Assembly (NCBI GenBank): GCA_022822855.1
Contig: JAJDYG010000040.1
Span: forward strand, 159,905-223,904
Length of the DNA stretch: 64,000 nt
DNA from: Dehalococcoidia bacterium
GTDB taxonomy: Bacteria; Chloroflexota; Dehalococcoidia; Bin125
Reading direction: 5' to 3'
The translations under genes and the position numbers were made by a program. The notes beneath the pieces are model-generated. The model was not told the DNA's origin and searched no databases. It saw nothing but the letters and a program-made list of their open reading frames with translations. Below, piece by piece: positions 6,933 through 35,609 of the stretch (the first letter of the stretch is position 1; every line of letters starts with the position of its first letter).

Positions 6933-7155
6933 CGCGACCAGATCGTCGTTGCCGCCCGAAGAGAGGTGGTTAACGGAGTCAGACAGGGTTCCCGCCTTCA
7001 GGAACGGCGAGGAACGGCAGCTGAGTGCATGAGTCTGTATCCCATCTGACTGCCCGACTTCCCGCGGGCCGACACAATAACCAATTGGACGCGCGGCCTG
7101 ATTCGGGCCCGCCCCGAACTGCCTTGAGCACATCTTTCCAGTCAGTGAGGAACCG

Positions 7156-22700: not shown

Positions 22701-23126
22701 GGCTGGGAGGGCCTGCTCTTCCTCACCTTCATCGCAATTGTCCTCCTCGCGGCCTTGGGCTTCCTCGTCGCCTCGGTGCTCGTCGCCCAGCAACAGCAGG
22801 GCGAGTTCGCCGTGCTCAGAACGATGGGCTTCTCCCTGCCTCAGGTGTTGCTGGTCGTCGGGATCGAGAAAATCCTCATCATCGCCGTCTCGATGGCCCT
22901 CGGCACCGCGGTCGGACTGCAGCTCGGAACGATGATGCTGGAGTTCGTCGGATTCGTGGAAACCGGCGAGACCGTCCTGCCGCCCTTCGTCACCGTCACC
23001 GACTGGGCCACCATCGGCGGAGCCTACGGAGTCCTCGGCCTCGTCTTCCTCGGAGCCATCGCCGTCATCGTCGCCCTCTACATGAGAATGACCATCGGCC
23101 AGATCCTCCGAATCGGCGCCGACTGA
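19728..23126 (+). CDS. FtsX/MacB-type ABC transporter permease with two TM modules (1132 aa), paralog of 16139..19558
   Basis: ERQSAEVALLKSRGA and EFAVLRTMG motifs; LQ.VGI.LFY, RYYLDL, DPLL and LPPF...TDW are shared with the divergent gene. Confidence 0.88.
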   Translation: MGGILSSFPTAFRIAVRRLNGNRRLMAAVAVGVILAVALMASTTIYRNALQDLGLQTDLRRTSDAELDVRILNAAHGLSSGLAEESFDVIDRRLRIPSQYISDTKKSLTSATFFMTEVGGIPPDEDPRDRARVLWFEGVREHIELVEGQWPDPAPAATPEQPPVVDVAIGTDAAASGGFTIGETRDIHASWRDDAEPIQIRVVGLVRPIDYNDRYWGVRRDHFHVPVEKTDAFAFFAPRSTLIDSMAGYMPELRARLEVYAQVDRSAFVADEAGLAAIRFRAAFEAIAKEIERARVETEIVSVLNDYETKEFFSSIPLLVLTLQIVGIVLFYLVLVSTMVVERQSAEVALLKSRGAGLGHIMSISTIEGLLLVALALGVGPIVAREAIAFLGYSPAFEGLTGGARLTVELTAEVYIYAAIGAGLSFIALIWPAWRSNRATVVHYARSTSRPEDRPAFQRYYLDLVVVGVGALLFFQLQESGSLVTEDLFGGLQQDPLLLIAPAVFVVTVAVLFLRLFPLLLSAFGGIARVLGGASTQMVLWHLTRAPVQPGRLALLLIMATSLGMFGGTFGATLDKSFDDRASYQSGAALRLADLRSSGASVAMLEEDLAEAPGIGEISYVVRQNASFSRGALDVTDATVLGIDPQSFTDVLWYREDFALNDVRELVNRATGPEFEVEQIVIPADATYVGMWLWLPDTSGVIAPNLRMQDGQGRYRDVAMQGLPRGRGFGGAELPEGWRFLYGDLYAGAGAPHQGPWTLQGISIRTGGTANFSGTVGYDAIQYTTQSSLPENIIEVGFDDGVIIESFEQQGRWTVYTDTSRAGALPDDARLSPEQARDGQFGMRYIWNRDVRSGLPRGVRLAGPDAPVPVVVSKDFLAEASLDEGQTALLSMASVYVPIKIVGSFDLFPTWNPEDARSLIIANRDYLYYRVNRNPASIGAAAPNEVWIQPSDDDGLRQLRTFLEVTPPWKHEAYDVDAIRNLQDEDPLVAAGWEGLLFLTFIAIVLLAALGFLVASVLVAQQQQGEFAVLRTMGFSLPQVLLVVGIEKILIIAVSMALGTAVGLQLGTMMLEFVGFVETGETVLPPFVTVTDWATIGGAYGVLGLVFLGAIAVIVALYMRMTIGQILRIGAD

Positions 23127-23136
23127 CCAACCTCCG

Positions 23137-23481
23137 CCCAGCTTCCCCTTCGCCCCGCGCCCCCACGCCGGGCCCAGCTTCCCCGTCGCCCCGTGCTTGA
23201 CACGGGGCCCAGAGCACCCAATGTCATGCGCGAGATGACCTTGGCCTCACCTCGATGCTCGCACGGAAGTCCCCTCGCCCCACCGTCAAGCTAGGAAGGA
23301 AGGCGTTGTTCCTCGCAACCGATCGATGCCCCGTGCTTGCCTGCCCCGCACTTGATGCGGGGACACGGGGCCCAGAGCACCCAAGGTCATGCGCGAACCG
23401 AAGTTGGCCTCACCTCGACGCTCCCGCGCGTAAGTCCCCCTTCCACAGTTGAGCCAGGGACGAAGGCATCGCTCCTCGCAA
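23137..23481. repeat. Degenerate tandem repeat: two ~130-bp units (23189-23318, 23329-23481) plus a 24-bp duplication (23137-23160, 23173-23196)
   Basis: Both units start CCCCGTGCTTG..ACACGGGGCCCAGAGCACCCAA.GTCATGCGCGA and end GAAGGC...TCCTCGCAA; the second unit carries a 22-bp insert. Confidence 0.85.
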
Positions 23482-23537
23482 GCGTCAGGGGGCTGAGGCG
23501 GTCGATCGCCCCATCGGCGCCAGCTTGATCTGAAGAG

Positions 23538-23577
23538 CTCCCCCTCTGGGGGAGCTGTCGCGGTGCGACTGAGGGGG
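23538..23577. repeat. REP-like double hairpin
   Basis: CTCCCCCTCTGGGGGAGCTGTCGCGGTGCGACTGAGGGGG, same family as the 15655 and 47754 copies. Confidence 0.75.
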
Positions 23578-23671
23578 CCCGCCTCCCAACACCTGCTCGT
23601 CGTACCCGTGGTTGCCACGGGTATCCCGATGTGGTTCCCAAAAGTCCAACAGTCCAAGACTCCGCCAACGA

Positions 23672-25123
23672 CTACCCGCCGCCCCCGCCACCACCACCAC
23701 CAGCCCCGCCGCCGCCAGCACCCAGCCGCTCCTCCGCCACACTCTGCTGAGGCGCAGGACGCGCCGCGAGATCGAGCGGCCCAATCGCTGCGCTCACAGT
23801 CGCCGCCGCCGTCCGCACCACCTCCTGCGCCATCCGCCGACCCTCCTGCACAATCTCACCGTTGCGAATCACCGACCGGATCCGCGGCAGCACCAGCGCA
23901 ATGATCATGATCGCCGCGAAGATGAAGCCCGGACCGATCAACAACGGACGAATACTGATGTAGTCCGCCGCCAACCCGTTCGCCAGGATCATCACGGCCA
24001 TGATCCCACCGGCGAACATCGCGTACAGCGACATCACCCGGCCACGCACCGAGTCCGGCACCACCGCCTGGATCATCGCGCTGGTCAGCGCCATGAACAT
24101 CGCCTGGCTCGCGCCCGCGATCACACCACCGATCATCGCCATCAACAGCGAATCCGCGAACCCGACCCACACGAGCGACAGCCCCGAGAACACTCCCGTC
24201 ACCATGAACACCCGGCCGCGCACCCTGCCCATCGGCAGCATCGACAGCACAATCGTCGAGGCCAGCGCGCCGCCTCCGATCGCCATCAGCATGTAGCCGT
24301 ACTCCGACTGCCCCCCGCCCAGGATCAGGTCCGCGTACGCCGGCAGCAGCGAGAAGTCGAACGCCATCGTGAACATGCAGTGCAGCGAGACCATGATGAT
24401 CATCAGCCGCACCGACCGTGCTCTGCCCAGGTAGCGCAGCCCTTCCCGCATGTGCCCGGCGGTGTCGCGCATCAACCCGCTCGTGTGACCCTGGATCCCG
24501 CCCGTCGAGCGCGTCGTCATCCGGGTCATCTGCAGAATCGACAGCAGCAACAACAGGGCGGCCGCGGCGAACACCCACTCGGGACCGAACGCCTTGATGA
24601 TCGGCCCGGCCACCGGACCGATCACCTTCGACCCGAATTGCATCATCGAGGCCATCGTGATCGCGCTCAGCAGCGCGTGCATCTTCACCGTGTTTGGCAG
24701 CAGCGCCTGCTGCGACGGCATCTCGCCAGAGCGAATGATCCCCGACACCAGCGTGATCAGGACCAGGTTCCACATCTCGATCAGACCGGTGAACGCCAGG
24801 ATCGCTAGCGCCACGGCCGTCAAGGCCGCGCCGAATCGACAGACGATCACGATCTTGGCCCGATCAAAGCGGTCCGCCAGCGCCCCGCCGATCGGGGCCA
24901 GCACCCACGGGCCAATCGCCGCAAACGTGACAATCCCCGTCCCCGACGGGTTGCCCGTCAGCTCATACCCCAGCCAGCCGCGAGCCGTGATCATCGCCCA
25001 CAGCGAGATCGCAGACAGCCCCGCCGCGTAGAACATCCGGCGGTACTCGAGGTACTCCATCGCCGGGAAGACGCGCAACAGGAACCCCGGCGGCTTGCTC
25101 CCGACGTCAACCCGTTGACTCAT
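23672..25123 (-). CDS. MFS transporter (DHA3/macrolide-efflux-like, 12 TM)
   Basis: GGALADRFDR motif A, DSVRGRVMS, about 12 hydrophobic segments. Confidence 0.92.
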   Translation of the reverse strand: MSQRVDVGSKPPGFLLRVFPAMEYLEYRRMFYAAGLSAISLWAMITARGWLGYELTGNPSGTGIVTFAAIGPWVLAPIGGALADRFDRAKIVIVCRFGAALTAVALAILAFTGLIEMWNLVLITLVSGIIRSGEMPSQQALLPNTVKMHALLSAITMASMMQFGSKVIGPVAGPIIKAFGPEWVFAAAALLLLLSILQMTRMTTRSTGGIQGHTSGLMRDTAGHMREGLRYLGRARSVRLMIIMVSLHCMFTMAFDFSLLPAYADLILGGGQSEYGYMLMAIGGGALASTIVLSMLPMGRVRGRVFMVTGVFSGLSLVWVGFADSLLMAMIGGVIAGASQAMFMALTSAMIQAVVPDSVRGRVMSLYAMFAGGIMAVMILANGLAADYISIRPLLIGPGFIFAAIMIIALVLPRIRSVIRNGEIVQEGRRMAQEVVRTAAATVSAAIGPLDLAARPAPQQSVAEERLGAGGGGAGGGGGGGGG

Positions 25124-25229
25124 CCGCTACCGCCTGTATCCATCCAACTCTTGCATCCTAACTGCTCCACGCCTGTAGTTCCTGATAGCGTGAGAACATA
25201 AGTGTCAGTCAGCCTGTTAGGAGCAACCC

Positions 25230-25466
25230 ATGAACCCCCTGCCCGCCTCGGCGCCGTCCCTGCCGCCAACCAACCAGAACCACTTCACACCCCAATTGCT
25301 GCCCCAACTGGTGATCGCCAAGCTCACCGACCTGCTCGATGGAACACCCGCCTACGTCCAACACTCAGCCCGGTCGCTGCTCGATCGGATCAAGAGCGCA
25401 TCGTCCCTCGACGCCGAACCGACCCCCGAAGAAGCCAACACCGAAGAGGAGGAAGAACCGCTCTAA
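25230..25466 (+). CDS. Small hypothetical protein with acidic tail (78 aa)
   Basis: AGGAG RBS 6-7 nt before ATG; helical core LTDLLDGTPAYVQHSARSLLDRI. Confidence 0.6.
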   Translation: MNPLPASAPSLPPTNQNHFTPQLLPQLVIAKLTDLLDGTPAYVQHSARSLLDRIKSASSLDAEPTPEEANTEEEEEPL

Positions 25467-25625
25467 TCCCCGTCTCGCTTCTCTTTTTTTCGCCGTTGTT
25501 TTTTTCCAGCGGCCGGAATCCCCGAAAACACCGCCGACCTCACCGGCGGCCTTGTCGTGTCTGTCACAACCAACACCGCAGCTACGCTAGGCAGGAAACA
25601 AGCAGATCCGGATCAGGCAAGACAC

Positions 25626-27320
25626 ATGACCTCGCAAGACCACCCCAATAACAACCTCCGCGAACGATCCAGCGTCCTCGTCGACGGCCCCAACCGCGCC
25701 GCCGCACGCTCACAGCTCTACTCCGTCGGCTACGACGACGAAGCCCTCTCCAAACCCCTGGTCATGGTTGCCCACAACTGGATCGGCACCATGCCCTGCA
25801 ACTTCTCCCACCGCGAACTCGCCCAGGACGTCATGCGCGGCATCCGCGAGGCTGGCGGCACTCCGATGGAGGTCAATACCGTCTCCATCTCCGACGGCAT
25901 CACCATGGGCACCGAGGGCATGAAAGCTTCGCTCATCTCCCGCGAGATCATCACCGACTCGATCGAACTCTGCGCCGTCGGCTACGCCTTCGACGCCGCC
26001 GTCGTCATCTGCGGCTGCGACAAGACCATCCCCGCCGCCGCCATGGCCATGGCCCGGATCAACATCCCCTCGGTCGCGCTCTACTCCGGCTCCATCGCCC
26101 CCGGACGCCACCACGACGGCCGCGACCTCACCATCCAGGACGTCTTCGAGGCCGTCGGCCAGCACTCCGCCGGCACGATCGACGACGACGAACTCCACCA
26201 GGTCGCCCTAAACGCCTGCCCCGGCGCTGGGGCCTGCGGCGCCCAATACACCGCCAACACCATGGCCACCACGCTCGAGTTCCTCGGCCTCTCGCCGATG
26301 GGCTCGGCCACCGTCGGCGCCACCGACCCGCGCAAACACAACGTCGGCGAAGCCGCCGGACAGCTCGTCATGGACGTCCTTCGCCGCGGCGTCATGCCCC
26401 GCGACATCCTCACCCGCGAAGCGTTCGAGAACGGCATCGCCTGCGCCGCCTCCACCGGCGGCTCGACCAACGTCGTCCTGCACCTCCTCGCCCTCGCCCG
26501 CGAGGCCGGCGTCGAGCTCAGCATCGACGATTTCGATGAGATCTCGGAACGCACCCCGTTGATCGGGGACCTTCGCCCCGGCGGACGCTACGTCGCTCTC
26601 GACATGGACCGTGCCGGCGGCACGCCGCTGCTGGCCAAACGCCTGCTCGAAGGCGGCAAGCTCCACGGCGACGCGCAGACTGTCACCGGGCAGACCATCG
26701 CCGAAGCAGCCGCCGACGCGCAGGAGACGCCCGGCCAGGACGTCATCCTGCCCGTCGACCAGGCCCTCAAGGACACCGGCGGACTCGTCATCCTCAAGGG
26801 CTCGCTCGCTCCGGACGGCTGCGTCGTCAAGGTCGCCGGTTACGAGCGCCAGCTCCAGACCGGCCCCGCCCGCGTCTTCGAACGCGAGGAAGACGCCATG
26901 GACGCTGTTACCCACAACCGGATCAACGCCGGCGATATCGTCGTCATCCGCTACGAGGGTCCCAAGGGAGGCCCGGGCATGCGCGAGATGCTCGGAGTCA
27001 CCGCCGCCATCGTCGGAGCAGGCCTCGGAGAATCCGTCGCCCTGCTCACCGACGGCCGCTTCAGCGGAGCCACCCGAGGCCTCATGGCCGGCCACGTCGC
27101 CCCCGAGGCTTACGTCGGAGGCCCCATCGCCCTCGTCGAAGAGGGAGACCAGATCACCCTCGACATCGCCAACCGCCAACTCAACCTCGACGTCGACGAA
27201 GCCGAGCTCGCCCGCCGCCGAGCCAACTGGCAACCGCCCGCCCCCAACTACGCCAACGGAGTCTTCGCCAAGTACGCCACCCTCGTCTCTGGAGCCGAGC
27301 GCGGCGCAGTCACAAGCTAG
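25626..27320 (+). CDS. ilvD: Dihydroxy-acid dehydratase
   Basis: [48 protein letters not shown] motifs. Confidence 0.96.
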
Positions 27321-27334
27321 CTACCCTCCCCGCC

Positions 27335-28126
27335 ATGACCCGACTACAAATCGCCCCGGACCTCTCCCTCGATCTCGCCGATCAAGGCGACGGCCCGCTC
27401 GTCATCCTCATCGCCGGCGGCATGATGGACATGGACCAGTGGGCGCCCGTCTCCGACGCTCTGCCGGATACCTACCGCGTCGTCCGCTACGACCAGCGCG
27501 GGATCGGCGAGTCCGACCAGCCAACCGAGGGCTACACGGTCGACCAGTTCGCCGAGGATGCCGTCAACCTGATCAAGACCCTCGACGCAGGCCCCGCCGT
27601 CCTGATCGGCAACTCCCTGGGCGGGACCGTCGCAATGGGCGCCGCCTTCCTCGCCCCCGAGCTCGTGCGAGGCATCGTCACCTGCGCCACCTCCGCAGGC
27701 CCGACCGGACCGCCAACGCCGCCCGAGACCATGCAGTACATGATGCGCGGAGCCCAACTCCCGGTCCCCCAGGCCGCCGCCGCGATGATGGACATCCTCT
27801 TCGCCACCGACTTCATCGACGAGCACCCTGACATGCTCGACAACGCCGTCGAAAAGCGAAGCAAGGGAGCGCCGATGATCGCCACCCTCGGCCCGCTCCA
27901 GTCCGCACTGATCTTCGACCCGATCGAACGCCTCAAGGCGCTCGGCATCCCTATGCTCGTCCTGCACGGAGAGGAAGACGTCCTCGTCCTCCCCGACCAC
28001 GCCCAACTCCTCGCCGACGCCGCCGGGACCACCGCCCAGCTAATCCCCAACGCCGGCCACGCCCTCGTCGTCGAGCAATCGGATGCCGTCGCCGAAGCCC
28101 TGACCACGTTCCTCACCGATCTCTAG
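27335..28126 (+). CDS. Alpha/beta hydrolase
   Basis: YDQRGIGES, GNSLGG nucleophile elbow, HGEED, AGH. Confidence 0.9.
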   Translation: MTRLQIAPDLSLDLADQGDGPLVILIAGGMMDMDQWAPVSDALPDTYRVVRYDQRGIGESDQPTEGYTVDQFAEDAVNLIKTLDAGPAVLIGNSLGGTVAMGAAFLAPELVRGIVTCATSAGPTGPPTPPETMQYMMRGAQLPVPQAAAAMMDILFATDFIDEHPDMLDNAVEKRSKGAPMIATLGPLQSALIFDPIERLKALGIPMLVLHGEEDVLVLPDHAQLLADAAGTTAQLIPNAGHALVVEQSDAVAEALTTFLTDL

Positions 28127-28133
28127 CTTCCCT

Positions 28134-28178
28134 TCTCCCCCCGCGCAAGCGGGGGGAGATGCCGAAGGCAGAGGGGGG
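28134..28178. repeat. REP-like double hairpin between convergent genes
   Basis: CTCCCCCCGCGCAAGCGGGGGGAGATGCCGAAGGCAGAGGGGG. Confidence 0.78.
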
Positions 28179-28216
28179 CAACGGTCAGTTGATCAGCGGC
28201 TGTCCTTAGCTCCTCG

Positions 28217-29599
28217 CTACACCTCAAGCTCCGGACGCTGCAGAATCCAGTCCGTCGACTGCTCATACGCATGAGCCACCCGACAGACCGTCGCCTCGTC
28301 GAAGTGCCGACCACCGATCATCAGGCCAATCGGCATCCCGTTGCGGTCATACCCGCAGGGAATCGAGATCGCCGGAATCCCGGTCACGTCGTACGGAGCC
28401 GTCAGCCGTGCCAGCTCCGCCGTCGGATCGCCATCCTCGATCAGCGGCGCCGTCCTTGAGCAGGTCGGCGAGATCAGCACATCCACGTCCTGCAGCACCT
28501 CGACTGTTTCGTCGATGAACTTGCGGCGCAGCCGCTGGTCGTTGATGTAATCCACCGCCGTGACTGAAAGACCGGCTTCCACCCGCTCGAGGATGTCGCC
28601 GTACTCATCCCGCCGCTCTTGCAGCCACTTGGCGTGATAGGCCGCTGCCTCGGCGATGATCGTCAACCCCCGCGGACGATCGGTCTGCAGCGGCATCTCG
28701 ACCTCCGTCACGGTCGCGCCCATGCTGCGCAGGTGATCGACCGCAATCTCGCAGTGCTCGACCACGTCCTCCTCGCAGCCCTGCCAGAGCATCTTGCGCG
28801 GAATCCCGATCCGAATCCCGTCCACGCCTTCAACCAGCGTCTCTGTGCAATCCCCGACCGGTACATCGGCGCTGCCCGGATCGTGCGGGTCGTACCCCGC
28901 GATCGCATTCAACACCAGTCCCGCGTCCTCCACCGTCTTGGTCAACGGACCGACATGGTCCAGCGTCCACGACAGCGGCAGCACGCCCCGTCGCGACACC
29001 CGACCGTACGTCCCCATCAGCCCGGTCACGCCGCACAGGCTGGCCGGAATCCGGATGCTGCCGCCGGTGTCCGATCCCAGCGCGCCCAGAGACGAGCCCA
29101 CCGCAACCGACGCGCCCGAACCCCCGCTGCTCCCACCCGGCGTCTTCGTCACATTCCACGGATTGCACACAGCGCCGTAGTGCGGATTCCGGCTCGTCGT
29201 CCCAAAGGCAAACTCGTGCAGGTTGAGCTTGCCCGGCATCACCGCGCCGGCTTCCTGGAGCTTGGTGTAGACCACCGCGTCCGTGTCCGGAATACGGTCT
29301 CGAAGGAAGCCGCCGCCACCGGTCGTCGCGATCCCGGCCGTGTCGACCAGGTCCTTCAGCGCAACGGGAATCCCGTGCAGCGGACCCAAATCCCGCCCGT
29401 CCCGCATGGCGTGGTCCGCCACCGACGCCTGCTCGCGCGCCAGGTCGGCCGTCACCGTGATGTACGCGTTCAACAACGGCTCCGTCGCATCCACACGCGA
29501 CAGCACCGACTCGGTCAGCTCGACCGCAGTCAGAGAACCGTCCCGCAACGCCGCACCGGCCTCAACGATGGAAAGTTCGTGCGCCTCGCGATGATCCAT
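28217..29599 (-). CDS. Amidase-signature family enzyme (GatA/AtzE-like)
   Basis: HGIPVALKD, GKLNLHEFA, PGGSSGGS, GSDTGGSIRIPA; GGAGG RBS before ATG at 29599. Confidence 0.93.
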   Translation of the reverse strand: MDHREAHELSIVEAGAALRDGSLTAVELTESVLSRVDATEPLLNAYITVTADLAREQASVADHAMRDGRDLGPLHGIPVALKDLVDTAGIATTGGGGFLRDRIPDTDAVVYTKLQEAGAVMPGKLNLHEFAFGTTSRNPHYGAVCNPWNVTKTPGGSSGGSGASVAVGSSLGALGSDTGGSIRIPASLCGVTGLMGTYGRVSRRGVLPLSWTLDHVGPLTKTVEDAGLVLNAIAGYDPHDPGSADVPVGDCTETLVEGVDGIRIGIPRKMLWQGCEEDVVEHCEIAVDHLRSMGATVTEVEMPLQTDRPRGLTIIAEAAAYHAKWLQERRDEYGDILERVEAGLSVTAVDYINDQRLRRKFIDETVEVLQDVDVLISPTCSRTAPLIEDGDPTAELARLTAPYDVTGIPAISIPCGYDRNGMPIGLMIGGRHFDEATVCRVAHAYEQSTDWILQRPELEV

Positions 29600-29600
29600 C

Positions 29601-29813
29601 TCAGTCCTCCACTCCACCGCGCAGATCGCCAACGTCATAACGCAGCCCATAAGCGGGCTCGGTCTCCCCAAGGTCCGGCAGTGGTTCACTGCTCAGCGCG
29701 TTCTTCAGCGTGCGAGTCACGATCGGCAGCGCCCGCTCCAGCTCCGCCCCTGAGGCGGAAGCGCCAAGTGACGCCGCCAATGCCCCCAGCGCCTCCAGTG
29801 GTGAATCAGCCAT
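29601..29813 (-). CDS. Small GatC/AtzG-like amidase partner (70 aa)
   Basis: MADSPLEALGALAASLG...LPDLGETEPAYGL; GAGGAG RBS; stop codon abuts the amidase start. Confidence 0.6.
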   Translation of the reverse strand: MADSPLEALGALAASLGASASGAELERALPIVTRTLKNALSSEPLPDLGETEPAYGLRYDVGDLRGGVED

Positions 29814-29939
29814 GCCCACTCCTCTCCCAGTCCATGCGTCAGCCCGGTTTGGCCTCGATGATACGAGTGCTGCCCCTATCCTGCCTGCATCCGACCGGTA
29901 TGCATGCCCAACCCAAGAATGCTCTGAGGAGTTCCCCGA

Positions 29940-30728
29940 ATGGCCGATGAAGTCCTGTTTGATGTGTCCGAGCGAGTCGCCACCATCACCCTCAATCGCC
30001 CCGACAAGATGAACACGATCAACAGCGCCCTCGGCTCTCAGCTGATCGAGTCGCTGCTCGAAGTGCGAAACAACGACGAGATCCGCAGTGCCGTGATCAC
30101 CGGCGCCGGCGACCGCGCCTTCTGCGCAGGCGCCGACCTCACTCAGGGCGACGGACCTGCTGCCTCCGCCGGACCCGCGGGCCACTTCCCCACCAACGCC
30201 GCCGACCGATTCGACGAGTTCGACGCCAAGAAACCGCTCATCGCCGCGATCAACGGCCACGCGCTCGGCGGCGGCTTCGAGATCGCCCTCGTCTGCGACC
30301 TGCGCATCGGCGCCGAGAACGCCCGCGCCCGCCTCGGACTGCCCGAGATCACGCTCGGCTTCTTCCCCCTCGCCGGCGGTCCCATGCGCCTGCCCCGCGC
30401 CATCCCCCAGGCCTACGCCAACGAGATGCTCTACCTCGGCCGCCGCCTCAGCATGGAGGAAGCCCTCCAGTGGGGCGTCATCTCCCGTCTCGTCCCCCAG
30501 GACCAGCTCCTTCCCACCGCCCAGGAGATGGCGGCCCAGGTCGCCGGCTACGCTCCGATCGCCGTCCGCGCGATGAAAGAACTGATCAACGCCCAGGGAG
30601 ACATGACCCTCGCCCAGGCCAACCGCTTCGGCGGCTCCCTCCGCTGGATCGTCGGCCAAACCGCCGACTCCAAGGAAGGCCCCCGAGCCTTCGCCGAAGG
30701 CCGCCAACCCGAGTTCAAGGGCGAGTGA
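29940..30728 (+). CDS. Enoyl-CoA hydratase/isomerase
   Basis: TLNRPDKMN, FCAGADL, GGGFEIAL, PEITLG, EGPRAF. Confidence 0.93.
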   Translation: MADEVLFDVSERVATITLNRPDKMNTINSALGSQLIESLLEVRNNDEIRSAVITGAGDRAFCAGADLTQGDGPAASAGPAGHFPTNAADRFDEFDAKKPLIAAINGHALGGGFEIALVCDLRIGAENARARLGLPEITLGFFPLAGGPMRLPRAIPQAYANEMLYLGRRLSMEEALQWGVISRLVPQDQLLPTAQEMAAQVAGYAPIAVRAMKELINAQGDMTLAQANRFGGSLRWIVGQTADSKEGPRAFAEGRQPEFKGE

Positions 30729-30746
30729 TCGAGACAGGACCAACAC

Positions 30747-31337
30747 ATGCGAAGCCAGGAATCCCTCAACGAACTCCGCTACCTCCGACGCATCCACGAG
30801 GATGTCGAAGACCAGTGGCGCGCCCCTCGACCCGACCTCAACCGTCTCCACCGCACCCTGGCCCTGCTCTACACCAGCCACGGCCTCGTCTGGAAATCCC
30901 ACGGCTGCTCGGGCGCCGGAGAGCATGACCCCTACGCCGGCGAAATCGTCGAACTCGCCCTGCGCATCGAACGATCAGTCCAGCGAGGTGCCCACCGAGC
31001 CTTCAGCCTCTTCGAACAGTGGCGCTGCGAGGCCTGTAGCTGGAACCACAACGCCCTCTACACCCTCTGGGCCACGACCGCCGACCCCGGCGCTGAGTTC
31101 CAACCCCTCGACGCCATCGACGACCACCGAGCCATGCACGAGCGGGCAGACCAGGGTCTCGACCAACCCCTTCCCGAAGCCCTCGACATCCGCAACAACG
31201 CTGCCAGCATCCGACTCGAAGCCAACGCTCAAATCGCAAGGCGACTCCAACACTGGACCGCCGAAGGCCTCCTCAGCAACGATGTCGACAAGCGTTACGC
31301 AGCCGAACTCGCCGCACCAGCCGTAGTGCCAGCCTGA
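30747..31337 (+). CDS. Hypothetical protein (196 aa)
   Basis: Fills the gap between the crotonase and CoA-transferase genes with tight spacing and host-like codon usage; no motif recognised. Confidence 0.65.
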   Translation: MRSQESLNELRYLRRIHEDVEDQWRAPRPDLNRLHRTLALLYTSHGLVWKSHGCSGAGEHDPYAGEIVELALRIERSVQRGAHRAFSLFEQWRCEACSWNHNALYTLWATTADPGAEFQPLDAIDDHRAMHERADQGLDQPLPEALDIRNNAASIRLEANAQIARRLQHWTAEGLLSNDVDKRYAAELAAPAVVPA

Positions 31338-31341
31338 TCCC

Positions 31342-32520
31342 ATGACCTACCTCCCCCTCGACCATCTCTTCGTCCTCGACCTCACCCGAGCCCGCGCCGG
31401 GCCGACCGCCACCCGACAGCTCGGCGACTGGGGCGCCGACGTGCTCAAGGTCGAGCAGCCCGAAGAGGCCGAGGGCATGACCGGCGGCCGCGAGTCCTCC
31501 GACTTCCTCAACCTGCACCGCAACAAGCGCTCGCTCACCCTCAACCTCAAGGAGCCCGAGGCCGTCGAGATCTTCCTCACCCTCGTCGAACGCGCCGACG
31601 TCGTCGTGGAGAACTACCGCGCCGACGTTAAGCGCCGGCTCGGCATCGACTACGAGGCCTGCCGCGCCCGCAACCCGCGCATCGTCTACGGCAGCATCTC
31701 CGGCTTCGGACAGGATGGACCCTACGCCTGGCGCGCCGGCGTCGACCAGATCGCGCAGGGGCTCGGCGGGATCATGACGGTCAACGGACTGCCCGGCGGC
31801 GGACCCGTCCGCGTCGGCATCCCGATCGCCGACCTGACCGCCGGTGGCTTCCTCGCCCAGGCCATCCTGATCGCCCTGCTCGAGCGTGAGCGCTCCGGCG
31901 AGGGTCAGTGGGTCCATACCTCGCTGCTCGAGGCCCAGATCGCCATGCTCGACCTCCAGGCCACCCGCTGGACGATCGACGGCGAGGTCCCGCCCCAGGC
32001 CGGCAACGATCATCCCACCTCCATGCCGACCGGCGTCTACGAGACCGCCGACGGGCACATCAACATCGCCGCCTCCGGGGGCGTCATGTTCGCCCGGCTC
32101 TGCCGAGCCATCGAGGCCGAGGAACTGCTCGACCACCCCGACTTCGCCTCCTCCGTCCGACGCTCGAAGAACCGCGCCGACCTCAACGAGCAGATCAACC
32201 AGCGCACCCGCACCGACACCTCCGAGCACTGGATCGAGTGTCTCAACGAGGCCGGCGTCCCCTGCGGACCGATCTACGACATCCCCGCAACCTTCGCCGA
32301 CGAACAGGTCAAACACCTCGGCATCGCCCGCCAGGCTCCGCACCCCGACCGAGGAGAAATCACCGTCGTCGGACAACCGATCAACCTCACCCGAACCCCC
32401 CAACCCGAGAGAATGCGCCTCGGCACCCCAGCCCTCGGGCAGCACACCGACGAAGTCCTCACCGACCTCGGATACACCCCCGACGCCATCACCGACCTCC
32501 GCGCCCGCGGCGTCATCTGA
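31342..32520 (+). CDS. Family III CoA-transferase (CaiB/BaiF/Frc)
   Basis: VLDLT...AGP, LGDWGADVLKVE, RNKRSLTLNLK, ENYR, GFGQDGP, catalytic D in IADLTAG, LGQHT. Confidence 0.95.
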   Translation: MTYLPLDHLFVLDLTRARAGPTATRQLGDWGADVLKVEQPEEAEGMTGGRESSDFLNLHRNKRSLTLNLKEPEAVEIFLTLVERADVVVENYRADVKRRLGIDYEACRARNPRIVYGSISGFGQDGPYAWRAGVDQIAQGLGGIMTVNGLPGGGPVRVGIPIADLTAGGFLAQAILIALLERERSGEGQWVHTSLLEAQIAMLDLQATRWTIDGEVPPQAGNDHPTSMPTGVYETADGHINIAASGGVMFARLCRAIEAEELLDHPDFASSVRRSKNRADLNEQINQRTRTDTSEHWIECLNEAGVPCGPIYDIPATFADEQVKHLGIARQAPHPDRGEITVVGQPINLTRTPQPERMRLGTPALGQHTDEVLTDLGYTPDAITDLRARGVI

Positions 32521-32544
32521 GCGTTCAATCCCAGGAGACCACCT

Positions 32545-33351
32545 ATGAAACACCACGTCCCCCTCGACACCGACAAGATGCTCGCCTGGTCCGAGGACGG
32601 TATCGGCTGGATGGTCTTCAACAACCCCGACAAGCTGAACGCCATGGGCGTCGCCATGAACGCCGCCATCCCCACCATCATGCACACCTTCCGCGACGAC
32701 GCTGACGTCCGCGTCGTGGTGATGAAGGGCGCCGGCGACCGCGCTTTCGTCTCAGGCGCGGACATCTCCGAGTTCGAGGCCCAGCGCTCCAACCCCGAGA
32801 CCATCGCCAAGTACGACCGCATCGGCGCCGCGGCCGGCCGAGCCTACGGCGAACTCGACAAACCCATCATCGCCATGATCCAGGGCTACTGCATGGGCGG
32901 CGGACTGCTCACCGCCCTCCGCGCCGACCTCCGCATCGCCTCCGACGATTCCCAGTTCGGCGTCCCCGCCGCCCGCCTCGGCCTCGGCTACGGCTACGCG
33001 GGTGTCAAGACGCTCGTCGACCTGGTCGGCTTCGCCGCTGCACAGGAGATCCTGCTCACCGGCAAACGTTTCCCCGCCGCCGACGCGGCGCGCTGGAACC
33101 TGATCAACCGGGTCACCACCCTCGAAGACCTAGAACCCACCGTCCACGACCTCGCCGCCACCATCGCCCAGAACGCTCCCATGACCATCCGAGCCATCCG
33201 CCGAGCCATCCAGGAAATCCCCAAAGACCCCGACCGCCGTGACCTCGACGAAGTCGACCGCCTCGTCCAGGCCTGCTTCGCTTCCAACGACTACAAAGAA
33301 GGCCGAACCGCCTTCATGCAAAAGCGCCGCCCCGTCTTCCGCGACGCCTAA
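32545..33351 (+). CDS. Crotonase-family protein lacking both canonical catalytic Glu
   Basis: NNPDKLNA, FVSGADISEF, GGGLLTA, PAARLG. Confidence 0.92.
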   Translation: MKHHVPLDTDKMLAWSEDGIGWMVFNNPDKLNAMGVAMNAAIPTIMHTFRDDADVRVVVMKGAGDRAFVSGADISEFEAQRSNPETIAKYDRIGAAAGRAYGELDKPIIAMIQGYCMGGGLLTALRADLRIASDDSQFGVPAARLGLGYGYAGVKTLVDLVGFAAAQEILLTGKRFPAADAARWNLINRVTTLEDLEPTVHDLAATIAQNAPMTIRAIRRAIQEIPKDPDRRDLDEVDRLVQACFASNDYKEGRTAFMQKRRPVFRDA

Positions 33352-33490
33352 CCCCCTCCAATCCCCTCTCCCCCGCGGCGCGGGAGGCCAGAGCTTGCGC
33401 GCTGGGCGCAGCGGAAGCTGGGTATGCGGGACTGGATCCCGCAGGTCGACGGGGATTGAGGGTGAACGCGAGAAAAAACGCGGACGGGTA

Positions 33491-33844
33491 TTAGGGAGGT
33501 TCGTCCTCGTCCTGATTGGAGGCTTCGTCGTCGTCCTCGTCCTGCTCGGCTTCGGCCTCAGCTTGGGCTTCCGCTTCGAGCCTGGCCTTGGCTTCGGCCC
33601 GTTCCATGTCCATCAGGCGGTCGATCTGCTCGTCGCTCATCAAGGTGACGAGAAGAGCGGGATCGTCCAAGTCGGGTAGCTGCTGCTGCGGGAGGGCGTC
33701 GTGCTGACCACGAGGGAAGAGGTCGAGCAGGCGGCAGAGCGAGTCGAGCGCGCGGACCTGGACGTAGCCGCGCTCGTTGGGGTCGTTGGCGATGGCCCAG
33801 TAGCGGTCGTGGATGGTTTGTCGGTTTGCTTGCGGGGTGTTCAT
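33491..33844 (-). CDS. Small hypothetical protein with acidic tail (117 aa), weak terminase-small-subunit-like helix motif
   Basis: YWAIANDPNERGYVQVRALDSLCRLLDLF core, EAEA linker, D/E tail. Confidence 0.6.
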   Translation of the reverse strand: MNTPQANRQTIHDRYWAIANDPNERGYVQVRALDSLCRLLDLFPRGQHDALPQQQLPDLDDPALLVTLMSDEQIDRLMDMERAEAKARLEAEAQAEAEAEQDEDDDEASNQDEDEPP

Positions 33845-33860
33845 GGCGGGTCCCTTCGGT

Positions 33861-33872
33861 GAACATGCGTTT
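33861..33872. promoter_or_regulatory. Putative LexA (SOS) box upstream of 33491..33844
   Basis: GAAC-ATGC-GTTT fits GAAC-RNRY-GTTY; a weaker second site (GAAA-GAGT-GTTC) lies at 33889-33900. Confidence 0.45.
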
Positions 33873-33954
33873 GGGGTTGATGGTATGTGAAAGAGTGTTC
33901 GGAGTTTGTATCGTGGTTGGCGGTTGGGGAGCCACAGGGAGTCCCCCTTTGTCT

Positions 33955-34112
33955 CCGCATCCCCTGATCAAGTCAGGGCAGGCAAGTGCGAGGCAGGCGT
34001 TCGGCGTCTCCCCCACGCACCCCCCCGTCATTCCCGCGCAGACGGGAATCCCGCTCCATTCCCTCTCCCCCGCCGCCAGCGGGGGGAGATGTCCCGTTGT
34101 GACAGAGGGGGG
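33955..34112. repeat. Mixed REP cluster: nested TCAAG palindromes, dRS3-like GTCATTCCCGCG-N-GGGAATC, CTCCCCC family
   Basis: CCGCATC[CCCTGATCAAGTCAGGGCAGGC]AAGTGCGAGGCAGGC; GTCATTCCCGCGCAGACGGGAATC; CTCTCCCCCGCCGCCAGCGGGGGGAGATGTCCCGTTGTGACAGAGGGGGG. Confidence 0.8.
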
Positions 34113-34166
34113 CGCCCCAACCTATGCGACAATCCAACACAGGAACGCCGCACAGGACGACGAAGT

Positions 34167-35609
34167 ATGGCCGAGCCGAACTGGAACAACCGCACGCTGT
34201 TCGTCGCCGACAACGTCCGAGTCCTCCGAGGCATGAACTCGGAGAGCGTCGACTGCATCGCCACCGACCCGCCGTTCAACAAGAAACGCATCTTCAACGC
34301 GCCGCTCGGCTCCAGGCAGGCTGAACAGCGCTTCGATGATCGCTGGCGCTGGGACGAGGTGACAGACGAATGGCAAGACTTGATCGCGACCGACCATCCG
34401 GCGATCAAGGAGATCATCGAGGCGGCGGTCGTCATCGAGGGCGGAAGCATTGACCATCGCACCGGGAAGATCGACACAGGCCGAGTCAGGAACTCAATCG
34501 CCGCCTACCTCGCCTATATGGCCCCGCGCCTCGTCGAGATGCACCGCGTGCTCAAGCCGACGGGCGTACTGTTCATGCAGTGCGACACGGAGGCCAACGC
34601 CTATCTGAGGCTGCTGCTCGACGCAGTGTTCGGCCGTCGCAATTTCATCAACGAAATCACACGGCGGCGAGTGGAAGCCAAAAGCTATCCCACACGGCGC
34701 CTGCCGGCCAACAGCGACACGATCCTTGCCTATGGCAAGTCCAACAAGCACAAGTGGAACTCGTCCTTCGAGCCATACGACTTGGCCAATCTCGACGAGA
34801 AGACAGAGCGTCAATACGACCTGTGGGACGGCGCTCGCCGCTACACCCTCGATAACTTGGTGCATCCCGAGGGCAACCGCCCGAATCTGACCTATGAGTT
34901 CCTGGGAGTCACTCGGGTCTGGCGCTGGGAACGGGAGCGCATGGAAGCAGCGTATGAAGCGGGGCGGGTCGTCCAGACCGCGCCCGGCAACGTACCGCGC
35001 TACAAGCGCTACCTCGATGAACAGCCTGGTCGCAAGCGGGACGATATCTGGGACGATGTCGTCCAGTTGGAGACCAGCGAGTTGGATTGGGACACGCGCA
35101 AGCCGCTCAGTCTCTACAAGCGGCTGATTGAATGCGGGTCCGACGAAGGGGACATGGTGCTCGATCCCTTCGCCGGCTGCGCGACGGCCTGTGTCGCAGC
35201 CGAGGATTTGCAGCGCAAATGGGTCGGGATCGACATCGATCCCGTCGCCGAGGAAGCGACGTACATCCGGCTGCGCGAGGCGACAGGGCTGAACATGACG
35301 GAACAGCCGGTCACCGTGCGCAAGTCGCCGCCGCGACGCCAGGACGTACAGCGGGTCCCGGACGACAAGCTGCGAGACGTCCTCTGGAACCGGCAGGGCC
35401 GTCTATGCGCCAACCCGTACTGCGATGCGGAGAATCTGCGCAAGGTCGATCTGCAACTCGATCACCGCATCCCAAAGGTCCGCGGCGGTGAAGACGGAGT
35501 GATGAACCGAATCGGCCTATGCGGAAACTGCAACGCTCGCAAGGGCAGCAAGGCTTGGGGTCTGTTCCTAGACGAGGAACGAGCCAAACTTCCCCACAAG
35601 AAGGTGTAG
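34167..35609 (+). CDS. Beta-class N4/N6 DNA methyltransferase fused to a C-terminal HNH endonuclease
   Basis: DN..VL..M...SVDCIATDPPF, RKPLSLYKRLI, VLDPFAGCAT; C-terminal CANPYC...DHRIPKVRGG..N..GLC..CN..KG. Confidence 0.9.
   Translation: MAEPNWNNRTLFVADNVRVLRGMNSESVDCIATDPPFNKKRIFNAPLGSRQAEQRFDDRWRWDEVTDEWQDLIATDHPAIKEIIEAAVVIEGGSIDHRTGKIDTGRVRNSIAAYLAYMAPRLVEMHRVLKPTGVLFMQCDTEANAYLRLLLDAVFGRRNFINEITRRRVEAKSYPTRRLPANSDTILAYGKSNKHKWNSSFEPYDLANLDEKTERQYDLWDGARRYTLDNLVHPEGNRPNLTYEFLGVTRVWRWERERMEAAYEAGRVVQTAPGNVPRYKRYLDEQPGRKRDDIWDDVVQLETSELDWDTRKPLSLYKRLIECGSDEGDMVLDPFAGCATACVAAEDLQRKWVGIDIDPVAEEATYIRLREATGLNMTEQPVTVRKSPPRRQDVQRVPDDKLRDVLWNRQGRLCANPYCDAENLRKVDLQLDHRIPKVRGGEDGVMNRIGLCGNCNARKGSKAWGLFLDEERAKLPHKKV

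Follow-up and report, generated by a model that had tools for sequence, protein, structure and literature searches.

A tiny hairpin module probably inserted into TCAAG hairpin loops at two loci of a Dehalococcoidia contig

Two nested hairpins in the window

A stretch of 64,000 nucleotides (nt) from a Dehalococcoidia bacterium of the phylum Chloroflexota (assembly GCA_022822855.1, contig JAJDYG010000040.1, positions 159,905 to 223,904 of the forward strand; hereafter the window) carries, at two separate loci, a short hairpin unit lodged in the loop of another hairpin at the same point of the sequence TCAAG, written below as TC^AAG. Both loci are probably insertions of a tiny, non-autonomous hairpin module. 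In TCAAG loops the module is inserted precisely 3′ of a C, without duplication and with strict position and orientation, and the TCAAG loop of CGTC-tagged repetitive extragenic palindromes (REPs), copies of the module itself included, is a preferred target. Coordinates refer to the window unless they follow a label of the form L248; such L-numbers denote the loci and contigs used for comparison.

Locus 1 lies in a pair of tandem non-coding units of ~140 bp and ~163 bp (23188–23490, divided into 23188–23327 and 23328–23490) that are ~87% alike. At the head of the first unit stands an intact, empty hairpin on the plus strand (23184–23212), which reads CGTC-GCCCCGTG-CTTGA-CACGGGGC-CCAG, with a CGTC tag (23184–23187), an 8-bp stem and 5-nt loop (23188–23208) and a CCA-like tail; in layout this is a CGTC-tagged REP whose loop reads TCAAG or CTTGA according to the strand. 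The paralogous hairpin 140 bp further on (23324–23375, plus strand) is interrupted: its tag CGAT (23324–23327) and GCCCCGTG plus CTT (23328–23338) are separated from GA plus CACGGGGC (23362–23371) and the tail CCAG by a 23-nt unit on the minus strand, CCCGCATCAAGTGCGGGGCAGGC (23339–23361), which consists of a 6-bp stem, a TCAAG loop and a CAGGC tail. On the minus strand the whole locus thus reads ctgg-GCCCCGTG-TC[CCCGCATCAAGTGCGGGGCAGGC]AAG-CACGGGGC-atcg. Because one C is shared by host and insert, the junction can be written in two ways, as TC^AAG (insert 23339–23361) or as T^CAAG (23340–23362), an ambiguity of 1 nt; once this host loop C is paired, the stem of the unit grows from 6 to 7 bp. 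The tandem units are spaced by 140 bp before the insertion point and by 163 bp after it, and since the difference is exactly 23 bp, the window holds its own comparison of an empty and a filled site. L248, L273 and L274 carry this very unit, nested in a host of the same type, and the exact intact 21-mer was found in more than 110 loci of other genomes, mostly of Sphingomonadales and Chloroflexota.

When folded as DNA, the locus 1 composite forms one long hairpin with a 7-nt one-sided bulge (CAGGCAA), in which the host loop C makes the seventh pair of the inner stem and the 5′ strand is continuous. Its fold energy is −19.1 kcal/mol (z −4.3), compared with −11 kcal/mol (z −3.9) for the empty hairpin. 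So stable and regular a composite, with stems that co-vary, is what might be expected of a convergent design, in which a long bulged hairpin is selected as a DNA or RNA element and no insertion ever took place. We regard this as most improbable, given the clean gaps of 23/24 nt found in paralogues and in conserved protein-coding genes, and the presence of the same module in unrelated hosts across nine phyla.

At locus 2 (33954–33999, plus strand) the host is itself a degenerate CAGGC-tailed unit, (T)CCGCA-TC ... AAG-TGCGA-GG-CAGGC-G, and the locus reads CCGCA-TC[CCCTGATCAAGTCAGGGCAGGC]AAG-TGCGA-GGCAGGC, with the 22-nt insert CCCTGATCAAGTCAGGGCAGGC at 33962–33983 on the same strand. Contigs of related strains differ from the window in three ways: one extra base after 33978 brings the insert to 23 nt, a C in place of the window's T at 33954 restores the host stem CCCCGCA, and a T in place of G at 33999 makes the host tail CAGGCT whole again. 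What the window shows is therefore a canonical arrangement of one unit inside another that has decayed slightly. The same host type, identically filled, recurs in L241, L247, L250, L253, L255, L277 and others. The first-pass annotation of this DNA had put both inserts at 22 bp; that length applies to locus 2, whereas locus 1 holds 23 nt, and the equality of length that it had drawn attention to is only rough (23 and 22 nt in the window, 24 nt outside loops).

CAGGC-tailed TCAAG hairpins occur only twice in the window, both times nested, and the pattern TCAAG-N6-GCAGGC is expected 0.06 times per window in shuffled sequence. Chance is ruled out by these shuffles together with the complementary host arms, which lie outside the search pattern. 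An assembly artefact is likewise excluded, by independent short-read contigs in several samples: at locus 1, contigs from sponge metagenomes reach across each of the two junctions and contain the nested 43-mer in full, and locus 2 is wholly spanned in four samples from two studies. The nested structures at TC^AAG that had been proposed for both loci are thus present in the window and in independently assembled contigs. No empty allele of either locus was seen among the sponge-metagenome contigs.

Position and orientation recur at other TC^AAG sites

A search of 185,000 species genomes for the nested signature (TC, unit, AAG, without an intervening T) returned 54 further sites in 53 stretches, where by our own estimate ~1 chance match is expected. 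Sponge-type Chloroflexota account for 43 of the loci (15 assemblies, with up to nine sites per metagenome-assembled genome, MAG), five alphaproteobacterial assemblies account for nine, and one match, L258 (Saprospiraceae), lacks host arms. Host stem, host tail and insert are combined in 24 different ways at the strict nested sites; the insert measures 23 nt in 47 of 53, and L271 carries a triple nest with three levels.

We also scanned with a pattern defined by the host only (CTGG-GCCCCG ... CGGGGC-ATCG with 29–36 nt between), which left position, orientation and length of any insert free. All of the ~22 clear insert-bearing hosts were filled right after TC and in one orientation; the count rises to ~28 if variant-loop inserts followed by GGGG are included. 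Inserts of the AAG/GAG class were 23 nt long, and those in variant loops 23–24 nt. Among the remaining stem-complementary matches, a few were due to chance and most were intact hairpins that ran on into a 20-nt tandem repeat. The idea that a tiny hairpin is inserted in a site-specific and structure-related manner, put forward in the first-pass annotation, is therefore upheld by the recurrence of position and orientation at the 54 other sites, and insertion points were not random in the scan that allowed any position. In metagenomes, a scan that tolerated an optional base before AAG gave 24 sites without T, of which ~15 had host arms of at least 6 bp and which included classical AT-footed CGTC REPs (for example ATCCCGGA and ATGCCGGA, both filled at TC^AAG); only one loop-nested site had a 3′ T.

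Paralogous gene-plus-hairpin loci within single MAGs offer further empty (L085, L102) and filled (L244, L262, L259) hairpins, separated by a clean 23-nt gap. The filled paralogues carry different units, CCCTGG in L244 and L262 and CCCTGT in L259.

A shared position could also reflect shared ancestry, if one or a few ancient nesting events were followed by the spread of whole composites or by gene conversion. Host flanks are indeed conserved at many nested sites (for example ..gatcgcggtctgg / atcggaagg..), and the nested 43-mer of locus 1 occurs on several different contigs of the same metagenomes; the filled state of all orthologous sites in related MAGs, and another composite with more than 90 near-identical copies, both taken up below, point the same way. 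Nevertheless, we consider such a history unlikely. It does not readily produce 24 host/insert combinations, a triple nest or paralogues with different units; the host classes involved (ATCG-, GACG- and CAGGCT-tailed hairpins, and AT-footed CGTC REPs from other phyla) have only the loop in common; and 8-bp arms do not offer enough length for conversion from one stem to a different one.

The module outside hairpin loops

Outside loops the module is 24 nt long and can be written CCCG-NN-TCAAG-NN-CGGGG-CAGGCT. Searching for CCCG-NN-TCAAG-NN-CGGGG-CAGGC yielded over 119 loci, which belong to at least nine phyla; the taxa are Chloroflexota, alpha-, beta- and gamma-Proteobacteria, Bacteroidota, Desulfobacterota-type lineages, Planctomycetota, Acidobacteriota, Entotheonella, Binatia and one Melainabacteria MAG, and 25 viral or prophage contigs carried the module as well. 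At 113 of 120 sites the module is preceded by C, and at 109 of the 120 CAGGC is followed by T. The two variable stem positions co-vary (GA/TC 52, TA/TA 34, CA/TG 15, TG/CA 5).

Filled and empty pairs that differ by 24 nt were found in BoxC-like repeats (CCCTCACC^CTAACC), Rhizobiales palindromes, GCCCTTCGACAAGCTCAG-type repeats and other hairpins, and none of the filled/empty pairs compared showed a target-site duplication. In BoxC-like repeats the hairpin is accordingly a separable cassette, shared with many unrelated hosts, and not an integral turn of a triplex-type motif. The module also lies in frame, as exactly eight codons, within a DDE_3 (IS630-type) gene and a DDE_5 (IS701-type) transposase gene; the Dehalococcoidia MAG loci L165 (DDE_3) and L188 and L195 (DDE_5) encode it as PVSSTGQA or TPYQVRGR.

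Several other accounts of these sites were tried and set aside. Integration of a circular unit at a TCAAG core, in the style of a tyrosine recombinase, predicts the order hostL-TCAAG-unitR-tail-unitL-TCAAG-hostR, which was not observed. IS91-like targeting of CTTG^ fits the loop by coincidence and fits none of the non-loop sites. A rule by which the 3′ T is absent only before A fails at the IS630 site AAC^ATG, where the T is present. Mimicry of a tRNA T-arm was considered for CCCTG-TTCAAGC-CAGGG, which with its 7-nt tail has T-arm dimensions, and is weakened by the variation among units of the G53:C61 equivalent and by the absence of a following CCA. No RNA family in Rfam matched 22900–34300, and a full-text literature search for six unit and hairpin strings found nothing.

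Host hairpins have the layout of CGTC-tagged REPs, a class linked to GIY-YIG nucleases

CGTC-tagged REPs, as surveyed in 2013 by Di Nocera, De Gregorio & Rocco (PMC3733652), have a stem of 8–9 bp whose first two pairs are A-T, a loop of 4–5 nt that comes in a few types, an unpaired tag with the variants TGTC and CCTC, and a short CCA-like tail at the other end; no dedicated transposase was found for them, and their occurrence inside other palindromes and in frame inside genes was already noted. The class, also known as NTS or Ssn-related motifs (SRMs), has since been tied to GIY-YIG Ssn single-strand DNA nucleases, for which an NTS-ssnA-NTS arrangement is described, with copies on both sides of a small single-domain GIY-YIG (cd10448) gene; the enzymes studied place their cut on the CGTC strand, upstream of the hairpin, and depend on the GTC of the tag (Chenal 2025, PMC11893778).

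The window hosts resemble this class in having a CGTC tag (empty hairpin) or a CGAT tag (filled hairpin), an 8-bp stem, a CTTGA loop and a CCAG tail. They differ from it in that their stems start with G-C instead of A-T pairs, and the inserted module has AGCCTG on the tag side in place of CGTC and lacks a CCA tail. In relatives the hairpin occurs in inverted pairs, and in ~20 Sphingomonadales loci inverted copies of the identical hairpin bracket a 100-aa GIY-YIG gene (domain confirmed), which is the NTS-ssnA-NTS arrangement. The repeat class points to small GIY-YIG Ssn nucleases rather than HUH/RAYT enzymes, and makes them the obvious candidate by association.

The two loci had initially been attributed to an HUH-type (RAYT/TnpA) enzyme, and this attribution was not sustained: the hairpins lack the GTAG/GTGG foot of RAYT-type REPs, the hosts bearing CGTC or CGAT instead and the unit being untagged there, and the class to which they belong is linked to GIY-YIG genes. 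Mobilisation by a Y1 HUH enzyme, either a RAYT or an IS200/IS605 TnpA, would account for strand- and orientation-specific insertion next to or inside a hairpin without target duplication, a style that matches single-strand 'peel and paste' transposition (PMC6006769). Nonetheless, it appears improbable to us because, besides the missing foot, the unit has a single hairpin and not two subterminal ones, its target is only a C and not a guide-matched word of 4–5 nt, and the repeat class is the GIY-YIG-linked one that came without a dedicated transposase in the 2013 survey (PMC3733652).

The Sphingomonadales GIY-YIG gene (MEKGGWVYIM...NPDWLDLWDQWY) sits between inverted exact hairpins, GCCCCGTGTCAAGCACGGGGC, for example at L033 255–580, in L075, at L087 3042–3360 and in ~17 more Sphingomonadales loci. 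Its stop codon TAG overlaps a conserved TAGCCAA flank, and the arrangement resembles an insertion sequence; gene-less inverted doublets near these loci look like deletion derivatives. Split-hairpin scans of the Sphingomonadales loci were either too noisy or empty, and nesting is rare there. Other hairpin types (GTCATTTCGAGCG.., GTCATCCCGCC..) bracket GIY-YIG genes in a Dehalococcoidia MAG and two alphaproteobacterial MAGs (L150 2528–2821 and flanks, L179, L166). The repeat type seems to be particular to each Ssn-like gene.

How the module may move, and what weighs against insertion

The mobile entity that we propose is a module with a G+C stem of 6–7 bp whose inner pairs co-vary, a TCAAG loop that does not change and a CAGGC(T) tail. 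Its target would be recognised as an extruded, single-stranded hairpin, for instance on one template strand at replication. A trans-acting, hairpin-specific single-strand DNA nuclease or transferase could then nick the loop, after which the module would be pasted or copied in. A wider reading, which we hold only tentatively, is that the 23/24-nt module may be an independently mobile single-stranded DNA element, spread over at least nine phyla and phage DNA, which homes into exposed C residues, above all at TC^AAG of Ssn-type hairpins and of its own copies, through a hairpin-specific enzyme so far not tied to transposition (an Ssn-family GIY-YIG nuclease or another partner), and so lives as a parasite of the repeat family.

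The copying route can also be framed as templated repair, in which a hairpin-specific nuclease, such as an Ssn-type GIY-YIG enzyme, nicks the loop and polymerases copy another unit, primed from the loop C. A nick followed by templated copying would explain both the one-nucleotide overlap between the −1 C of the target and the stem of the unit, and the variable 3′ end, where a T present at some sites and absent at others has a polymerase-like look. The cut positions of Ssn homologues, moreover, differ by 1 nt between enzymes. To our knowledge, GIY-YIG enzymes form no covalent intermediate, which we count in favour of such repair. On the other side, on the CGTC strand the Ssn enzymes studied cut ahead of the hairpin and not in the loop, the unit has no CGTC tag, and a tblastn search found no ssn gene near the nested sites examined. 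On balance, templated repair strikes us as a possible but somewhat doubtful account.

Returning to the insertion of a mobile hairpin module, a number of observations weigh against it. In other lineages the module occupies other points of the hairpin, always after C: C^TTGA in antiparallel orientation in L132, L143 and L207, CTTGAC^C in L116 and L139, and a point inside the stem, ATTCC^GGG, in L160. Freshwater and sediment metagenomes contain this last composite, CTGGATTCC[unit]AAGTCAAGCCCGGAATGACA, more than 90 times and, because some composites amplify as wholes, truly independent insertions must be fewer than the number of sites. Comparison of orthologous sites and of strains brought no presence/absence polymorphism to light: every orthologous pair was filled, nested sites of species with 87–97% flank identity included, so most of the insertions that we see are old and current mobility is unproven. 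The difference between 23 nt in loops and 24 nt elsewhere, where an extra 3′ T is present, is unaccounted for. As regards the candidate enzyme, the CGTC tag that the Ssn enzymes studied need in order to cleave is missing from the module, and the published SRM motif (HGTCWYN(0-2)YYVSBRHN(0-5)WNVSBRGN(0-2)RNCYNB) matches neither the TCAAG hairpins nor the unit. No Ssn-like GIY-YIG gene was found by tblastn in the window or near the nested sites examined; no search for HUH genes was made.

The copies of CTGGATTCC[unit]AAGTCAAGCCCGGAATGACA lie on the metagenome contigs L385–L504 (for example L388 3844–3873). In each, the module sits within the 5′ arm of an Ssn-type hairpin and the GGG after the insert has become AAG, whereas L160 keeps GGG. 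The inner stems vary with compensation (GTA 51, GCA 13, GTG 7, GGA 5).

Relation to known repeat families

Parts of this picture are already known, namely REPs inside palindromes and genes, tiny nested repeats in Nostocaceae, and the link between CGTC REPs and Ssn nucleases. In the literature that we searched, we found neither the TCAAG-CAGGC module nor its range across phyla nor its loop- and orientation-specific insertion, and neither the one-orientation insertion directed at TC^AAG loops nor the 23/24-nt module is contained in PMC3733652 or PMC11893778.

REP/REPIN-RAYT systems and IS200/IS605 elements are alike in involving small extragenic hairpins handled as single strands, the absence of target duplication and REPs in frame within genes (PMC6006769, PMC3116915). 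Unlike the hairpins described here, however, REP/REPIN-RAYT systems are defined by a GTAG/GTGG guide with a cognate Y1 HUH gene; GTAG/GTGG was not seen here. REPINs move as doublets, in contrast to the single 23-nt hairpins of this study, and IS200/IS605 elements have a 4–5-nt target and subterminal hairpins at both ends, where the module has only its −1 C and a single hairpin. Rickettsia palindromic elements (RPEs), of which RPE-4 and RPE-6 are CGTC REPs (PMC3733652), are likewise palindromes inserted in frame into protein-coding genes. They are longer and lineage-restricted, and loop nesting is not a described feature of theirs.

A functional counterpart may be found in the SDR elements of Nostocaceae, which are very small mobile repeats. 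These elements, of which Elhai and colleagues are said to have given an account in 2008, reportedly measure 21–27 nt, keep their hairpin by compensatory changes, enter specific short targets (SDR5 into HIP1) and nest in their own copies; they are reportedly confined to one cyanobacterial group, and an RNA intermediate is said to have been proposed. The module resembles them in its length of 23/24 nt, in its co-varying stems and in the occurrence of units within units (locus 2, L241 and others, with the triple nest of L271). The likeness is functional only: the sequences are unrelated, the target here is a hairpin loop, and the range covers at least nine phyla.

The 23-nt module thus behaves like one of the smallest site-specific mobile pieces of DNA known. 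How CGTC-type REPs and Ssn-related motifs multiply is an open question in the field, and the 2025 Ssn paper demonstrated a nuclease and no mobility mechanism (PMC11893778). The nested sites provide a precise and testable footprint, comprising the nick position TC^AAG in an extruded loop, an orientation, a 23-nt product and natural empty sites. In practical terms, the module adds eight in-frame codons to genes, and seeds spurious open reading frames (ORFs) and assembly breaks in GC-rich MAGs.

Features adjoining locus 2 and related loci

A classical Ssn-related motif/CGTC REP, CGTCATTCCCGCGCAGACGGGAATCCCG (34026–34053, plus strand), follows locus 2 at a distance of 27 nt. Nothing else in the window matches the published SRM motif, and this REP has a very high summed depth in sponge metagenomes. 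Next to it, at 34066–34118, the hairpin CTCCCCCGC-CGCCA-GCGGGGGAG is, together with its flanks, highly repeated in sponge metagenomes, with a summed depth of 200–1600 compared with 10–40 for unique flanks, and in L240, too, it has been conserved next to the SRM. The intergenic spot that corresponds to window 33955–34006, just before the CGTCATTC SRM, is occupied in L240 by a nested hairpin (7035–7086) with an orientation opposite to that in the window and a different host type (CGAT/CCAG-flanked), which suggests either that the site was filled independently or that the palindrome was inverted.

The ORF adjoining locus 2 on its other side (33491–33844, minus strand) is a member of a family of small ORFs with acidic tails. 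Members were also found in L262 (5601–5960, minus strand), L085, L102 and L259, and none of them matched Pfam. Several paralogues occur per MAG, with a TCAAG hairpin ~100–130 nt upstream of each start.

In sponge Chloroflexota, tandem 20-nt repeats of the CACGGGGCATCGGAAGGGGG type follow the hairpins at L244 370–470, in L085, at L102 4535–4600, and in L073, L242 and L294. These repeats copy the 3′ arm and tail of the hairpin, and their copy number varies between orthologues, being higher in L244 than in L262.

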